From Octopus sinensis (Eukaryota), in NCBI RefSeq assembly GCF_006345805.1, contig NC_042997.1, positions 50,840,001 to 50,904,000 on the forward strand: 64,000 bases of DNA. Direction: 5' to 3'. Made by a program: the position numbers and the translations under genes. Numbering within the stretch: the first letter of the stretch is position 1; each line of letters begins with the position of its first letter. Of this stretch, positions 4,050 to 17,995 are shown in pieces. The notes below the pieces were generated by a model that saw only the letters and a list, made by a program, of their open reading frames with translations, was not told the origin of the DNA and searched no databases.

Positions 4050-5191
4050 TAACGATTAAATAATTAAATTTAGAAAAATTAGAAGAAAAGTTTTTTTAAA
4101 AGAATATTTCTGTAGTAGTGTTCAGATATAAGTAGCATTCTGCCTTTCTCTGACTCCCTTGTTTGCACTTGTGTGTTCGAGGTCGTTTTGAGTTCTTGGT
4201 AGGATAGGTGAAGAATAAGGAGGCTGATGTGGAGAGGGGGTGGGGAAATCTGGGAATGCCTTAATGGTCGTATTTTGAATGGTCAGTGGCTGACAGTAGT
4301 CGCAGCTCAATTCAGGAATTGTTTCCGTAAACGAATGGCCCTGCACAGATCCCAGATAAAAATTCCCCAAAACAGAAAAATAGCTTTTAGCCAACACATA
4401 GTTACTTGCGCCAACAAAAAAACACCAAACTTCAGGATTTTCCCCCTCTACCAATTTAGGGACGATACAACCTCGAGACAACGAATAAGTAAAGAAAATC
4501 TCTTTATTACAAAATACAAGCCACTTCTTAACGGGTCTACGACAAACAATTAATATACCTCAACTTTAGAATAAAAGAAATATATACACACACAAATATT
4601 ACACTCCATAGAATCCATTACTAATCAGCCCCATCACAGCTATACTTTCACCCATTCATATTCTCCCTTCTCTGTTTTTTTCTTCTTCTTCTCCCTCTTC
4701 TTCTTCATCATCATCATTATCATCATCATCGTCGTCATCATCATCATCACCACCATCATCACCACCATCTTCTCCTTCTCCTTCTCCTTCTTCTTCTTCT
4801 TCTTCTTCTTCATCATCATCATCAACATCGTCATCTTCTTCTTCTTCTACTTCTCCACCTTCCACCCCTTAACCTTGTCACTAATGTCTTTCAGTATAAC
4901 GCCTACGCAAATTCCATAAACAATTCCTGAATTGAACTGCGACTACTGTCAGCCACTGACCATTCAAAATACGACCATTAAGGCATTCCCAGATTTCCCC
5001 ACCCCCTCTCCACATCAGCTCCTTATTCTTCACCTATCCTACCAAGAACTCAAAACGACCTCGAACACGCAAGTGCAAACAAGGGAGTCAGAGAAAGGCA
5101 GAATGCTACTTATATCTGAACACTACTACAGAAATATTCTTTTAAAAAAACTTTTCTTCTAATTTTTCTAAATTTAATTATTTAATCGTTA

Positions 5192-5229
5192 CAGTTGAAA
5201 AGGTCTCAAAATGACCGAAACCGGTACTG
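5192..5229 (+). ncRNA. Minimal type I hammerhead ribozyme, U3-A8 variant (inverted copy)
   Basis: CAG TTGAAAA GGTC TCAAAAT GACC GAA ACCGGT A CTG. A third copy lacking the 5' half of the core begins at 5531. Confidence 0.72.
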
Positions 5230-5336
5230 AAAGATTCACTATAAAATTATCTTAGCATTTTCTATTTTTGACTTGTTTTTTCATATATATCAACTCGTGT
5301 GTTCCTTTCCACCCTTATACATATATATATATATGT

Positions 5337-8305: not shown

Positions 8306-9041
8306 TATGATAAAAGAAGGGATTATTTCACATGTGTTTTGAGCGTGATGGGAAAGGTTATATAACGTAAAGGTGATGCACAGAAATGAAAAATAATCTC
8401 AGAACAATACAAAAAGGAACCTTATTATTTTGAGGAATGTGGAAACACCTCCTAACCACTATTCTTTCCAAATCTACTCTGACCTGGAGTAGTAGCACCT
8501 GCTAGAGTCTCACCTATGGTTTAATTAGGATATGAGCGCAGGGACGTTGAAATATTTGGGTTGGTGTCCGAGAGTGCAATATGCCTACTGTGAGTGAGGG
8601 AGCCGGGTCTGTTAAATCATCCCTCTAGGAGAAAGATAACTGTATAAAAAATCCGATGCTCTAGTGAGACGGATACAGTGTATTTTGCTTCTGTCTAGGT
8701 TCCTTACTATTGCTACTAATTGCCGTTGTCGCTTTGTGCAAGCCGCACCAGACTTAGAACCCATGCATGGGCATTGCTGACGTTACCTGTCAGCGATGGT
8801 CGTGCTCGTCTAACGAGTAGACAGCCTATATATATATATATATATATATATAATAATAATAAATATTAGGGAATAAATCCAAATTTACAGGGAAAAATCA
8901 GATTTAGGATTGAATCCAATTTTATAGTAAAATATAATATAATATTAATTAGAGACAAAACCACTATTATGCAAATCAAACAAAGAAAGACTTAATCCAA
9001 TACATAAAAAATTTTATATAAATTAAATATAATTAAGATAT

Positions 9042-9087
9042 CCACTACGATCGTTTCTTGTCACTTCTATGGACATTCATCAGGTGG
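9042..9087 (-). ncRNA. Type I hammerhead ribozyme, canonical core
   Basis: Minus strand reads CCAC CUGAUGA AUGUC cauagaagu GACAA GAA ACGAUCGU A GUGG, with one mismatch at the base of stem II. Confidence 0.78.
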
Positions 9088-10680
9088 TTTCAAGACCTAA
9101 AATATAATCAATATTTTTAAGATATAAATTTGAAATGACTAATATATATAAAATATAAAATTATCAATGAAAATATATATAATCAAGAACTAAAATAACC
9201 TCTATAAACAATTGTATATAATGAAACCTAGTATTTAAATTCTCATATTTAAAGATGAAATAGCTAATTTCAAAAAACAAAAAACAAAAAATAAAAAATA
9301 TATATACACACATGATCATGCACATATATCCATGTATGTATATAAACATATCTAAATACTTACACAAACTCACACACACATATATATATCTATACATACA
9401 CATAAACATATAGACAAAGATAAATTTATAATGTAGCTGTATACTTCTACACATTGCTTATTCATACTCCCACACACACACATACAATCACTCATTCATA
9501 AACATATTCTCTCAACATGATACTAACACAGAGGAAATATAACATCCAGTAGCCGCAGATACTCAACCACAAACTTATATAAATATTTCATTCTTAGTAA
9601 AATATTATTAAATACTATATACTATATATATGTAATAAACATATATAAATACGTAAACAAACACACACACATATATATATTCTATATACTATATGCATGT
9701 AATAAACATATATAAATACGTAAACAAACACACACACACACGTAAATATTTATACATACACAAATACATAAAGACAATATTTCTACACATTAATAATGCA
9801 TACTCACACACACACACATACAATCATTCATACATAACCGTATTCACACTGCAATACTCTAACACAGAGGGGAAACAAATCCAGTAGACACAGATACTCA
9901 GCTACATACTTATAGGAATAATCCTTACTTAGTAATATATTATTAAAAAATACTATCATTACTATAAACAAATTTATGAATGGGAATATTATCGTATATA
10001 AAATTATTCTATTATTAAACATAGCCTAAACCATTTTAAATCGAAACCTATCTATTTATCAAAGTTTGTCTAAATTATTTAATAACTAATAACAAAGAAA
10101 ATTACGATAAATAGATCACTACATAAACAGCAAGATTAACATAAGGAGAATATTATTATTCAAAGGCTTACACATATTAAAAATTACAATTTGGAGATCT
10201 TAAAAAAAAGTACGTACCTTCTATGCAATTTTGAACTATGAAGTGAATTTGAATGACAAACGTCTTACAGCGTTTAAGAAATTACGTTATCAACAGAAAT
10301 AGAATAAATTTTTAATAAATTCTTTGCGCGTGATGAACCAACTTTATTTTAAAGATTATGAATGGAATAATATGTTTATCATCGTAAATAGAATGAATTT
10401 ACTAAAATATTCTTTAATAAAACAAACATGATAAACAAACCCAAACAAAACAAATATAATGATCAAAACCACCCATTACCAGATACACAAGAGCAAACCT
10501 ATATAGCAATCCCCCCATCTATACATTCACACATATATACACACACATATTTACACACACCCACACGCATATACATATACACACTCTCACATACATATAC
10601 ATACGTACAATACTCGATATATACACCAATATATTCACACCCACACTCATACAAATAAATAAATACATATACATCCATAA

Positions 10681-12269: not shown

Positions 12270-12700
12270 AGTAACCTGTGTCTGCATTTTATTTTGCGCT
12301 CTTCACCTGTATTCAGTAAATTATAATACCTATAAATAAAATTTCCTTAAACTCATTAGCGCACAAATAACAAAAATTCACTCCTATAGTATATGATTTA
12401 GTTTTACAAATTATTTCCCAAGATAAGTTATAATTAATATTTTGTGATTTAAGTCTCCAAATGTACTTGCTAAGTCCAGTGGAGTTGATTAAGTTTTTAT
12501 TTTTAAAAGAATTCAGATGTTGTGCGATTCTTAATTTTATTTTAGAGGAAGTAGACCCTATATAAATCGCTTTTGGGTAATTATTATTCTTAAAATTATT
12601 ATCATGTAATGTAACTATACATTTATACACTACATCATTAATATCGCATTTATTATTTAATTTACATTTAGATTTATCTCTACAAGTACAGTTAATATAT
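12270..12700 (-). pseudogene. GIY-YIG endonuclease of a Penelope-like element (possibly Hydra-type clade)
   Basis: CTCRDKSKCKLNNKC..DVVYKC...IYIGST..KLRIAQH..STGLSKYIW..CYLCANE, with KCRH further on in another frame. Clade assignment is tentative. Confidence 0.8.
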
Positions 12701-13038
12701 GTCTTATCTTTATTATTAGTATTATTAAATAATTTATTTTTGTAAAAATTATTCAGTTTAAATTTGTTAAATGAAGAAATAATGTTACCTACATTATTAG
12801 TGGAATAACCTACTCCAAAATTATTACTAGAAAATAAGGTAAATAAGAATAAAATTTGGTTAATAGTTCCTTACGGTGATCAAGTTAAAACCAACATTAT
12901 TAAAGAGATTTTAGATATTATCGAACTTTTTATTCGAGATAATCGTAAATATAAAAACATTTTCTCTAGTAATAATTTTGGAGTAGGTTATTCCACCACT
13001 AATAATGTAGGTAACATTATTTCTTCATTTAACAAATT

Positions 13039-13492
13039 CTTTTCAATGAAGAATGTTTCCTTGTTTAGTCTAATTAGACTAAACAAGGAAACATTCTTCA
13101 TTGAAAAGTACAAGCCCAGACTTAACCATTCCAACATACTTATACAGAGAAATTCACTCCAAAGAAAAGACAAAAAATTTTAAGCGATTATCTCCCTTAC
13201 ACCGGAAGAAATCACTTATTACCTCCCCTTATTTGGAACTCTTCTCAACATAAACATAACGATAACTCTTCTCAACATAAACATAACGATGTAAGAAATT
13301 TGAAAAGCTGAACGCGAAACCGGTCATTTCTTCTAAACTATGTCATTGTAAGAAGAAAATTGATAACATTCTTCAGACATATTGACTCAAATATATATTT
13401 TTTAACCTTTTAAAACAAGCCTTCTGTAGTTTTTTCACTTTTTACTATTTTCTATATAGTCAACCACGTGCTTTCACAAACCAACTTTCTCA

Positions 13493-13495
<3 letters not shown>
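13039..13495 (+). mobile_element. Third Penelope-like 3' tail with fold-back 5' end
   Basis: Encodes RLNKETFFIEKYKPRLN (cf. RISKENLFITKYKPLLN of element 1), followed by a hammerhead, ending at (TA)n. Confidence 0.75.
13293..13332 (+). ncRNA. Minimal type I hammerhead ribozyme, U3-A8 variant
   Basis: AAGAAAT TTGAAAA GC TGAAC GC GAA ACCGGT C ATTTCTT: 7-bp stem I, 2-bp stem II, palindromic stem III, GUC site. Confidence 0.75.
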
Positions 13496-13524
<29 letters not shown>

Positions 13525-13528
<4 letters not shown>

Positions 13529-14366
13529 TTTAACAATTAAGGATAATCTCTTAATAAGGGATCTTAACAAGAAATTATCGGGTAGCTAGCGTGAAAATCT
13601 CATAAAAGAAAAGAATTCGAAAATAATTTTTTTCTTTTGAACAAATTAATTATATCTATATTGTATAGAGGGCATTATTACACATAAATGCCTCACACTA
13701 AGAGGGACAAAGTCATTACTACCAAAATTATACTAATCATACCCAAATGCAGTTTTTCAAAGCAAGACATTTAAAAAATGAATTTAGTTCTGTATCACCG
13801 TGATTTCACATTCAACTTACGTCTAATGATCGTCAGCAGAACTGATTCTGAACACATCATAAATAAACTACCAACCTCTATACAATATAGATATAATTAA
13901 TTTGTTCAAAAGAAAAAAATTATTTTCGAATTCTTTTCTTTTATGAGGTTTTCACGCTAGCTACCCGATAATTTCTTAAGATCCCTTATTAAGAGATTAT
14001 CCTTAATTGTTAAACTTATTCCGAAATACTTTTCATTACCCGACATGCAGTTCGTAAAAAGCCCGCCATTTACCGGATATATGATTTATAAACATTCCAT
14101 GTGCTTGGCCGGAGTGAGCAGTTGTCTGTTCGTCTTCGCTACGTAAGGTTGGTAGTTTATTTATGATGTGTTCAGAATCAGTTCTGCTGACGATCATTAG
14201 ACGTAAGTTGAATGTGAAATCACGGTGATACAGAACTAAATTCATTTTTTAAATGTCTTGCTTTGAAGAACTGCATTTGGGTATGATTAGTATAATTTTG
14301 GTAGTAATGACTTTGTCCCTCTTAGTGTGAGGCATTTATGTGTAATAATGCCCTCTATACAATATA
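13525..14366. mobile_element. Non-coding hammerhead-containing element (retrozyme-like or non-autonomous PLE): 477-nt unit plus inverted partial copy
   Basis: 13525-13877 is the reverse complement of 14146-14366 plus 13875-14019. Direct repeat CCTCTATACAATATA at 13875 and 14352. Flanked by (TA)n. Confidence 0.75.
14180..14237 (+). ncRNA. Type I hammerhead ribozyme, canonical core (mirror copy on - strand at 13786-13843)
   Basis: AGTTCTG CTGACGA TCATT agacgtaagttg AATGT GAA ATCA cgg TGAT A CAGAACT, with a U-U mismatch at the base of stem II. Confidence 0.8.
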
Positions 14367-14384
14367 TATATATATATATATATT

Positions 14385-15402
14385 ATGCCACCGCATAACT
14401 TGACACTAAAACTGGATGCTTCCATTATGTTGCTTAGGAATCTTGACCCATCTCAACTCTGTAATGGAACTCGCTTAATTGTTACTTCCATGAAGCTCCA
14501 TGTCCTGCAGGTAACAATCATAACAGGTAGTCACAAAGAAATGTCTTTATTCCCAAAATTCCTCTCATACCTACAGATGTTCCATTTGAATAGAAGATGC
14601 TTCGGTTTCCAGTCAAACTAAGTTTTCTTATTTCAATTAACAAATCTCAAAGTCAATCCCTCAATGTAGTTGCACTTGATCTCTCTGCCACAGGCTTCTC
14701 CCACAGCCAACTCTATGTTGTTTCCTCGCGGACTGGTAGCAGCAACAATTTATTCATTTCGAAACCAACTAAAAATTACACAATTAATATTGTTTACCCT
14801 GAGGTGCTTCAACATTGACAGATTTTCAGTTCGAAATTCTATAATCATTACGATTTAGATTTTTTTTTTTTAATAAAACATAGATATTCTGAAATAATTA
14901 TGAGAATATATCTTTATATTTATTGTTTAAGATAAAAACAGTAGTAACAGTAGTAGGCGCAGGAGTGGCTGTGTGGTAAGTAGCTTGCTAACCAACCACA
15001 TGGTTCCGGGTTCAGTCCCACTGCGTGGCACCTTGGGCAAGTGTCTTCTGCTATAGCCCCGGGCCGACCAATGCCTTGTGAGTGGATTTGGTAGACGGAA
15101 ACTGAAAGAAGCCTGTCGTATATATGTATATATATATATATGTGTGTGTGTTTGTGTGTCTGTGTTTGTCCCCCTAGCATTGTTTGACAACTGATGCTGG
15201 TGTGTTTATGTCCCCGTCACTTAGCGGTTCGGCAAAAAGAGGCCGATAGAATAAGTACTGGGCTTACAAAGAATAAGTCCCGGGGTCGAGTTGCTCGACT
15301 AAAGGCGGTGCTCCAGCATGGCCGCAGTCAAATGACTGAAACAAGTAAAAGAGTAAAAGAGTAAAAGAGTAAAACCCGTGCAACACCGGGTCATTCACCT
15401 AG
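14385..15402 (+). mobile_element. Helitron 3' fragment (PIF1-like helicase C-terminus, hairpin and CTAG end), interrupted by a SINE
   Basis: PPHNLTLK..IMLLRNLDP..LCNGTRL, then FPVKLSF..SINKSQSQSL..FSHSQLYV..NIVYPEVL. Terminal ACCCGTGCAACACCGGGT...CTAG|T at 15374-15402. Confidence 0.88.
14956..15372 (+). mobile_element. tRNA-derived SINE family A with (GTAAAAGA)n tail
   Basis: A-box/B-box-like head (TGGCTGTGTGG...GGTTCAGTCCC), GGCACCTTGGGCAAGTG body, tandem tail. Other copies at about 17226-17595(-), 43130-43385(-), 48585-48900(-), 59953-60366(-), 61355-61560(-), 62120-62275(-). Confidence 0.85.
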
Positions 15403-17106: not shown

Positions 17107-17995
17107 AGCTGAAATTTACAGAAAAACAAAAGACGAAGACAGGTGTATAAACAACAAGCAGGTGTATTAGTTTGACGCTCGTGAAGGTGAGAAAGTCCTT
17201 TACATTTGGAGCCTACGCTCTTCAACAGTCATTTGACTGCAACCATGCTGGAGCACCGCCTTTAGTCGAACAAATCGATCCCAGGACTTATTCTTTGTAA
17301 GCCTAGTACTTATTCTATCGGTCTTTTTCCGAACCTCTAAGTTACGGGGACATAAACACACCAATATCGGATGTCAAGCAATAGTGGATGCGTACAAACA
17401 CAGACACACAATTACATACAGATATATCTATGACGGGCTTCTTTCAGTTTCCATCTACCAATATCCACTCACAAGGATTTGATCGGCCCGAGGCTACAGC
17501 AGAAGACACTTGTCCAAGGTACCACACCGTGCGACTGAACCTGGAACCATGTGGTTAGAAAGAAAGCTTCTTACCACACAGCCACTCCGGTGCCTATACA
17601 TATACAGTATATGTGTGTGTGTGTGGAAGCACAATGGCCCAGTGGTTAGGGTAGCGTGGTCGTAGGATCGCTGTTTTGATTCCCAGACCGGGCGTTGTGA
17701 GTGTTTATTGAGCGAAAACACCTAAAGCTCCACGAGGCTCCGGCAGCGGGTGGTGGCGAACTCTGCTGTACTCTTTCATCAAAACTTTCTCTCATTTTTT
17801 CTTCCGGTTTCTCTTGTACCTGTATTTCAAAGGGCCAGCCTTGTCATACTCTGTGTCACGCTGACTCATCCCGAGAACTACGTTAGGGGTACACGTGCCT
17901 GCGGAGTACTCAGCCACTTGCACGTTAATTTCACGAGCAAGCTGTTCCGTTGATCGGATCAACTGGAACCCCCGTCGTCGCAACTGACGGAGCGT

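Follow-up and report, generated by a model that had tools for sequence, protein, structure and literature searches.

A young, non-coding hammerhead repeat of Octopus sinensis is inserted in (TA)n microsatellites, mostly as two divergent arms, one of which stops at the first and the other at the second of two fixed sites. We followed this repeat through the genome from a single locus in a window of 64,000 nucleotides (contig NC_042997.1, positions 50,840,001 to 50,904,000 of the forward strand), to which all coordinates below refer unless another locus is named. With a probability of about 0.7, the locus is a short two-armed copy of the tandem repeat that was inserted by the reverse transcriptase (RT) and endonuclease of a Hydra-clade Penelope-like element (PLE), which primed both (TA)n ends on one RNA. 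As to the enzyme that mobilises animal retrozymes, the papers of 2020 go no further than to name PLEs as likely candidates, on the basis of shared hammerheads and co-occurrence (PMC7229834, PMC7761336), and a preprint by Li et al. (10.64898/2026.07.22.740005) adds pLTR homology and co-occurrence to this proposal. Here the PLE footprint lies on the retrozyme itself, at hundreds of sites. The class of element is already known; the value of the present data is in the quantified one-of-each footprint and in the evidence for two primers on one RNA.

The locus and its retrozyme family

The insertion consists of a left arm of 354 nt on the minus strand (13524-13877; monomer positions 397-481, then 1-270) and a right arm of 492 nt, or 1.02 monomers, on the plus strand (13875-14366; positions 123-481, then 1-137), monomer positions being counted from the predicted cleavage site. 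The two 5'-truncated arms meet head to head in a 3-nt microhomology, CCT (13875-13877). A BLAST self-comparison of the region pairs 13651-13877 with 14146-14372 (inverted, 227 nt, 99%) and 13524-13671 with 13875-14019 (inverted, 97%). It reproduces the segment order of the sequence-only reading, namely Z (13875-14019), X (14020-14145) and Y (14146-14366) on the plus strand and Y-Z on the minus strand, from 13877 to 13524. The left arm ends in the long terminus E1 (minus strand, ..AAACTTAT), whose last 3 nt are common to the target, and the right arm in the short terminus E2 (plus strand, ..CCCTCTATACAATATA). The microsatellite is present on both sides, as had been proposed: at 13495-13526, following the 3' end of a PLE-like fragment, and at 14363-14383, followed by a Pif1-helicase (Helitron-type) fragment. 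A target-site duplication is not readable at these insertions, since both ends lie within (TA)n.

The length of 477 nt at this locus is 492 nt minus a 15-nt stretch with which Y ends and Z begins, and the right arm is 4 nt short of the family monomer of 480-481 nt. The earlier claim that the junctions Z-X, X-Y and Y-Z close a 477-nt circle did not hold up: they are no evidence of a circle, and the permutation needs none, because Y-Z is the ordinary head-to-tail junction of any tandem array. Within segment Z, monomer positions 138-270 form a tail of ~133 nt between the two inferred priming sites, closed by a conserved stem-loop just before E1. The first ~55 nt of segment X are predicted to pair with monomer positions ~20-90 in both sister families. 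A conserved hairpin common to three related families (14329-14355, plus strand) lies directly 5' of E2, so that both termini are preceded by conserved stem-loops. The longest ATG-initiated open reading frame of the circularised monomer encodes 33 aa in sense and 69 aa in antisense orientation, in agreement with the earlier statement that there is no meaningful ORF, and we found neither an RT nor a GIY-YIG ORF, the hallmark of autonomous PLEs, in the window element or the monomer.

A genome search with the unit gave at least 205 matches in the 40 scored of 1106 candidates, too many to be due to chance. Arrays occur on many chromosomes with a unit spacing of 479-481 nt, some with 13 or more units, and 184 near-full units are 94.5-100% identical. 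The retrozyme family is real, young, and present in several hundred copies. The BLAST check suggested earlier thus found monomer-length head-to-tail arrays at dispersed loci, which support the description as a non-LTR retrozyme, or a non-autonomous PLE, made of non-coding tandem units with a type I hammerhead. Segment X was not seen inside a coding PLE at any locus examined, so that the condition named earlier as refuting this reading, X as part of a longer coding PLE with no monomer-length repeats, did not arise at these loci. A sister family of 459 nt (L123-L150, L228, L231-L233) is ~80% identical and has a more canonical hammerhead; its tail query returned 1479 first-look candidates. A search with a loose-end pattern turned up an older third family, ~75% identical. 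Both have a two-end layout like that of the 481-nt family. Assembled contigs of four public runs from four studies all contained the monomer and the Y-Z joint, a result that indicates presence only, the RNA status of the runs being guessed.

The hammerhead of the right arm (14180-14237, plus strand; predicted cleavage 14230/14231) has a stem I of 7 bp, CUGACGA, a stem II of 4 bp behind a U.U at 10.1/11.1 with a predicted GUAA tetraloop, GAAA, and a stem III of 4 bp (AUCA/UGAU) with the loop CGG, and is predicted to cleave after UA. A second complete type I hammerhead, absent from the first list of features, lies in the left arm (13843-13786, minus strand; predicted cleavage between 13793 and 13792). 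Rfam detected no hammerhead at E ≤ 1 in either arm, giving only a weak match to HH9 at 5181-5245. The call is based on motif, folding and covariation. Across families, both partners differ in 7 of the 15 hammerhead pairs, as against no more than 1 in slid controls, in a small alignment of 6 distinct rows that includes decayed copies, and the core of the common variants varies at N7 only. This covariation suggests that the ribozyme has been maintained. The pair at 10.1/11.1 is U.U in the 481-nt family and A-U in its sister, in place of the usual G10.1-C11.1, and the U.U may make the predicted cleavage weak. In the examined loci, which partly overlap, 333 type I motifs were counted.

That stem III can close within one monomer, unlike in the minimal PLE motifs nearby, proved correct in its first half: the hammerhead-competent fold is 1.2 kcal/mol above the minimum free energy (MFE), both alone and in a long context. 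In two shorter contexts, in which a hairpin upstream offers a competing structure, the gap widens to 3.7-5.7 kcal/mol. The contrast with the PLE motifs is smaller than claimed, because AUCAC-G-GUGAU is also an odd palindrome and cofolds as a dimer. The circular monomer, with 33% GC, has a predicted MFE of -123.8 kcal/mol (z=-6.2 on 60 shuffles). RNAalifold found covariation in only 3 of 80 pairs with one partial sequence in the input, and we place no weight on this result. With one hammerhead per arm, in opposite orientations, the window locus cannot release the 477-nt monomer by self-excision, and under the two-unit activity criterion given in the Li et al. preprint it would not count as active. 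It is a passive two-armed copy of the retrozyme family.

By the features that sequence can test, the element is a non-LTR retrozyme and would work like one, with the G10.1-C11.1 pair as the exception. Like the metazoan retrozymes described in PMC7229834 and PMC7761336, it consists of non-coding, low-GC tandem units with one type I hammerhead each, has a strongly self-paired predicted fold, and forms dispersed arrays in a genome with co-occurring PLEs. A GC content below 45-50%, the absence of coding capacity and a self-paired RNA, all typical of retrozymes, are found in the 481-nt family, the last as a predicted fold. Its unit is longer than the characterised circular RNAs of 170-400 nt and within the range of 51-972 bp given in the preprint. 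Homology to pLTRs, reported there for 24 of 57 Xenopus families, was not found here in about 90 PLE-bearing loci. Retrozyme repeats are described in PMC7761336 as showing no motif that indicates the mobilising element. Two-armed inverted insertions with two fixed termini, as seen here, were not found described in the accessible portions of these two papers and the preprint.

Two fixed ends and a probable link to Penelope-like elements

The main feature of the family, overlooked in the sequence-only reading, is that, of two fixed end sites, one arm of an insertion uses the first and the other arm the second. An arm stops at monomer position ~270 (E1) or ~137 (E2, a few up to 143) and then passes into (TA)n; 203 of 209 arm ends abut an AT-rich microsatellite. 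Pattern counts for the exact termini across the genome gave at least 215 E1+TA and at least 281 E2+TA, compared with 0 for reversed control patterns. Most insertions are two-armed and divergent, with E1 at one end and E2 at the other. The 173 ends listed, from C1 through part of C5, include 40 divergent neighbour pairs no more than 10 kb apart, every one of them E1+E2, and the one convergent E1/E1 pair looks like a separate insertion. When 39 loci were picked by sequence alone, 26 proved two-armed and all 26 were E1+E2. Twenty fresh loci picked by E1 comprised 15 with an E2 partner, 4 single arms and 1 that was cut off, so that all 15 resolved two-armed loci had one of each. The 119 mapped loci included 93 two-armed ones, 90 of them E1+E2; 34 of these 93 had been picked as E1+E2 pairs and are not independent evidence. 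Two of the three exceptions also turned out to be E1+E2 when the sequence was extended or followed beyond a 1.7-kb insert. L175:3884-4589 is the sole locus that resembles a true fold-back palindrome, and its inverted part has no (TA)n terminus. None of the two-armed loci examined was E1/E1 or E2/E2.

PLEs are known to leave a truncated, inverted copy whose tail is often confined to one end (PMC8557442, PMC3846280). The strict one-of-each pairing is new here; the PLE papers, as far as their accessible text goes, call the tail optional or often one-sided. Hydra-clade PLEs insert in (TA)n (PMC8557442). The GIY-YIG fragment beside the locus belongs to an RT-endonuclease family with the motifs R..WK, DKT and CxCX5C and no CCHH; checked in one ORF and assigned by motifs, with no tree, this family appears to match the definition of Hydra-clade PLEs. 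It has two termini of its own (1075 and 662 pattern matches). On C1, 16 of 16 adjacent divergent pairs of these ends were one-of-each and 5 other neighbour pairs were on the same strand; there was one T1/T1 divergent arrangement, 5 kb apart and with a T2 end between. Two further Hydra-like families have one-of-each ends by eye. The pairing rule of the retrozyme thus equals that of the local Hydra-like elements. Their tails of ~70-85 nt in the local families examined, compared with 133 nt in the retrozyme, count against shared machinery.

The comparison with Hydra-clade PLEs as described by Craig et al. 2021 (PMC8557442) and in PMC3846280 and PMC11167929 extends to the inverted 5'-truncated copy, the tail at one end, the (TA)n target, the hammerhead upstream of two termini, the microhomology joins and the capture of host sequence. 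The retrozyme differs in having no ORF, a tail of ~133 nt rather than 30-40, whole-monomer arrays and a full stem III. The non-autonomous MRC1 of Chlamys is likewise a PLE passenger with multicopy head-to-tail insertions; the non-autonomous Chlamys elements have a 3' end that resembles their autonomous partner, and most Chlamys elements are described as lacking canonical hammerheads (PMC8557442). No autonomous PLE homologous to the monomer was found in about 90 PLE-bearing loci, an incomplete sampling of families in which the best E values were 0.01-0.08. Searches in the neighbouring GIY-YIG family and in P0001-related families gave no homologous autonomous element, and neither did two loose-end patterns, one of which returned nothing and the other the third retrozyme family. 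Since none of the about 90 loci aligns with the monomer, it is the integration signature that assigns the partner, and the element is best described as a retrozyme bearing the signature of PLE integration.

In vitro, RT starts at both ends of a PLE tail, the two strands are each cut and extended, and the protein is predicted to form a dimer (PMC11167929). In the same work Frangieh et al. report RT start sites without a difference between strands, which counts against the strand-specific starts at E1 and E2 that we propose. The formation of PLE inverted copies with a one-sided tail is called unresolved in PMC8557442, and a short, young, high-copy passenger makes it countable. Several intact Hydra-type ORFs, with open frames of 717-947 aa, exist in this genome; with the 481-nt RNA, its two proposed start sites and the (TA)n target, they make up the components for a test.

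A probable single RNA with two primers

Our model starts from the arrays of the family, which are observed, and would run as follows. An array would be transcribed as a structured multimer, of which the hammerhead would cut only a part, releasing monomers that are possibly ligated into circles. A PLE protein, probably a dimer, would bind the E2-E1 domain of one unit and cut both strands of the (TA)n target at which the insertions are found. One cDNA would start at E1 and the other at E2 by UAU/AUAUA pairing, giving the two fixed termini ~133 nt apart and the one-of-each pairing observed in the retrozyme and, in matching form, in the local Hydra-like PLE family. Both RTs would proceed in the 5' direction, past the hammerhead site, and stop by stalling or on reaching the end of the RNA, and the two cDNA ends would be joined by the microhomology that is seen at the inner junctions. 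A monomer bottleneck, in its simplest form rolling-circle RT on a circle, would restore long uniform arrays. In a stronger version, PLE integration as such would be obligately asymmetric and two-ended, with a dimer that holds one RNA at two fixed sites and uses a different one of them to prime each end of a double-strand break, and the retrozyme would hijack the Hydra enzyme by structural mimicry without pLTR homology, alternating between multimeric and circular templates. We hold this version only tentatively, at slightly less than even odds; asymmetric two-site priming, if true, would account for the inversion of PLE copies as well as for their one-sided tails.

Several observations point to a single RNA template. 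The 5' ends of both arms lie within 12 nt of each other in register at 22 of 88 clean loci, compared with 3.0 expected by permutation (20,000 rounds, maximum 11), and long arms co-occur (odds ratio 15-33, p<1e-4). At two loci, L183 and L194, one unit-specific substitution is found in the same unit of both arms when units are counted from the 3' (priming) ends. Because the arms often stop at the same template base and because these two variants are in register, both DNA ends were likely primed on one RNA. Mirrored in-register variants as a class (2 firm and 2 doubtful, versus 113+7, that is 120, unmirrored) are suggestive of one template; single variants are mostly error-like, 44 of 176 being transitions. 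The inner junctions show 0-14 nt of microhomology (44 in one case) or short insertions (24 of 90). One sister-family insertion, L061:1225-1545 (C3 near 30406750), contains a captured 219-nt piece of a VWA-domain exon, flanked by an E2 arm of 32 nt and an E1 arm of 88 nt. The piece is 97% identical to a tandem-exon gene on C23 and is in sense orientation within the E2 arm, as would be expected of an RT template switch on an RNA template; it spans no splice junction.

LINE-1 twin priming is a related process, in which two target 3' ends prime one RNA and leave an inverted 5' part with a microhomology join. In LINE-1 the position of the second primer varies and there is no overlap between the arms, whereas here both sites are fixed and internal and the arms overlap over hundreds of bases. 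Main texts in the openly accessible literature yielded no cephalopod retrozyme and no twin-priming account of PLEs, and the main text of a 2026 Octopus repeat paper makes no mention of ribozymes.

The earlier suggestion of a circular or multimeric RNA template finds support, for a multimer rather than a monomer circle, at L183 and L194. Internal cleavage-site junctions are exact in 277 of 296 cases and none has a jump scar. About 93% of passes cross the cleavage site, and the template was therefore mostly uncut or re-ligated. There is no sharp stop at the site, only a two-fold rise: 17 arms in roughly 240 passes stop at positions 1-20, about twice the mean, and a comparable peak lies at 41-80. 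In arrays of at least 3 units, 82 variants are fixed, 24 partly shared and 163 single, and the units of one insertion form a uniform set that includes both arms; 7 private variants, at 4 loci, are present in every unit of the two arms, and some variants are common to adjacent units. The number of 5' ends coinciding one round apart (5 of 40 versus 2.7 expected) is not a significant excess; a circle might produce such an excess. A monomer bottleneck is needed, because copying of linear multimers only shortens arrays and cannot sweep a new variant through them. We consider it rather likely that rolling-circle RT on a circle, the simplest such bottleneck, is a step of the cycle; DNA-level expansion may be another route.

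The most serious alternative, possible and distinctly the less probable of the two, is that no circle ever forms and the same two-ended priming takes place on uncut linear multimers, arrays being restored by DNA expansion or by repeated monomer jumps. The heterogeneous multimer templates of L183 and L194, the crossing of the cleavage site in about 93% of passes and the variants shared by adjacent units all fit this scheme, as do the dispensability of Poseidon hammerhead cleavage in vitro (PMC11167929) and the 8 of 9 Xenopus dimers reported as uncleaved in the Li et al. preprint. It does not sit well with private variants fixed across both inverted arms, the 163 singletons against 24 partly shared variants, junctions free of jump scars, stem covariation that suggests a maintained ribozyme and the 17 stops at positions 1-20, about double the mean, immediately 3' of the cleavage site. 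Circular RNAs have, moreover, been shown for retrozymes of coral, mussel and axolotl (PMC7229834).

Self-priming, in which one cDNA folds back and copies itself and the second terminus is a site of endonuclease resolution, is unlikely in our view. It has been proposed for PLEs (PMC3846280), the tail being ascribed to endonuclease resolution (PMC8557442); a quarter of the loci are near-perfect palindromes at the junction, and L175 and L194 are both compatible with it. A fold-back copy must, however, nest one arm inside the other, and for this reason 13 of 88 clean loci (19 at a looser cut), the window locus included, break the scheme by arm lengths that are impossible for it. The register of the L183 variant fits neither a fold-back nor a monomer circle, and it is only this one of the two in-register loci that excludes fold-back. 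In vitro, too, both tail ends are RT starts (PMC11167929).

Priming of both ends on one RNA also accounts for the data better than the spread of a satellite DNA by recombination, carrying a hammerhead by chance and inverted secondarily: although arrays reach 13 or more units and the hammerhead repeats of newt and schistosome were first described as satellites (to judge from the titles of the references), this very improbable view is largely refuted by the scatter of the (TA)n sites, 3' ends that are fixed where 5' truncation varies, the one-of-each rule for ends, joins at microhomologies and the captured coding piece. That the inverted structure is a long-read chimera or an assembly artefact is scarcely credible, for all the homopolymer indels in the assembled units, since an artefact would not leave a different fixed terminus on each arm 40 times out of 40, and the one-of-each rule recurs in the sister family and the PLE family.

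Neighbouring and related sequences

The PLE fragments and the Helitron piece adjacent to the insertion were considered as parts of the element and rejected, having no similarity to it; they are neighbours only. The GIY-YIG fragment at 12313-13110 is Hydra-like, scrambled and partly inverted. The region 13039-13494 is apparently the 3' part of a different PLE, with a GIY-YIG-like C-terminus by eye, and ends at the same (TA)n as the retrozyme. It contains a decayed hammerhead-like motif near 13307; a similar decayed motif at 5181-5245 is the source of the weak HH9 match. The stretch 8850-9100 is a Hydra pLTR that includes its long terminus and a minimal hammerhead on the minus strand, the core of which is at 9083. 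Directly to the right of the insertion, 14382-14818 is a broken, Helitron-like Pif1 helicase fragment (PF21530, E 6e-14). An abundant SINE-like repeat at 14954-15338, with an inverted copy at 17226-17596, presumably resembles the octopus tRNA-derived SINEs.

Elsewhere in the genome, loci L252-L301 and the pattern matches on C1 include several Hydra-like PLE families, whose open frames range from 717 to 947 aa and in some contain Asn-rich inserts; two fixed termini, one per arm, lie ~70-85 nt apart. In the hammerhead of the family with a 727-aa frame, loop II is of the GNRA type and stem III is an odd palindrome as in the retrozyme. A PLE ORF of this genome is 64% identical over 106 aa to a protein of Octopus bimaculoides; Pfam and PDB did not recognise the ORF. 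This single match fits the label "cephalopod" given earlier to the element. L195:2030-3730 is a 1.7-kb element inside a retrozyme array, with a target duplication of ~18 bp. Its ORF1-like frame is broken, and a zinc-knuckle-like motif was recognised by eye, with no Pfam match. Two other small non-coding elements in (TA)n, L248 near 1900-2560 and L035:210-1088, are possibly PLE passengers as well: one has inverted ends and a hammerhead-like core, and the other is a 350-bp partial tandem with a spacing of 529 inside a 1.6-kb duplication.
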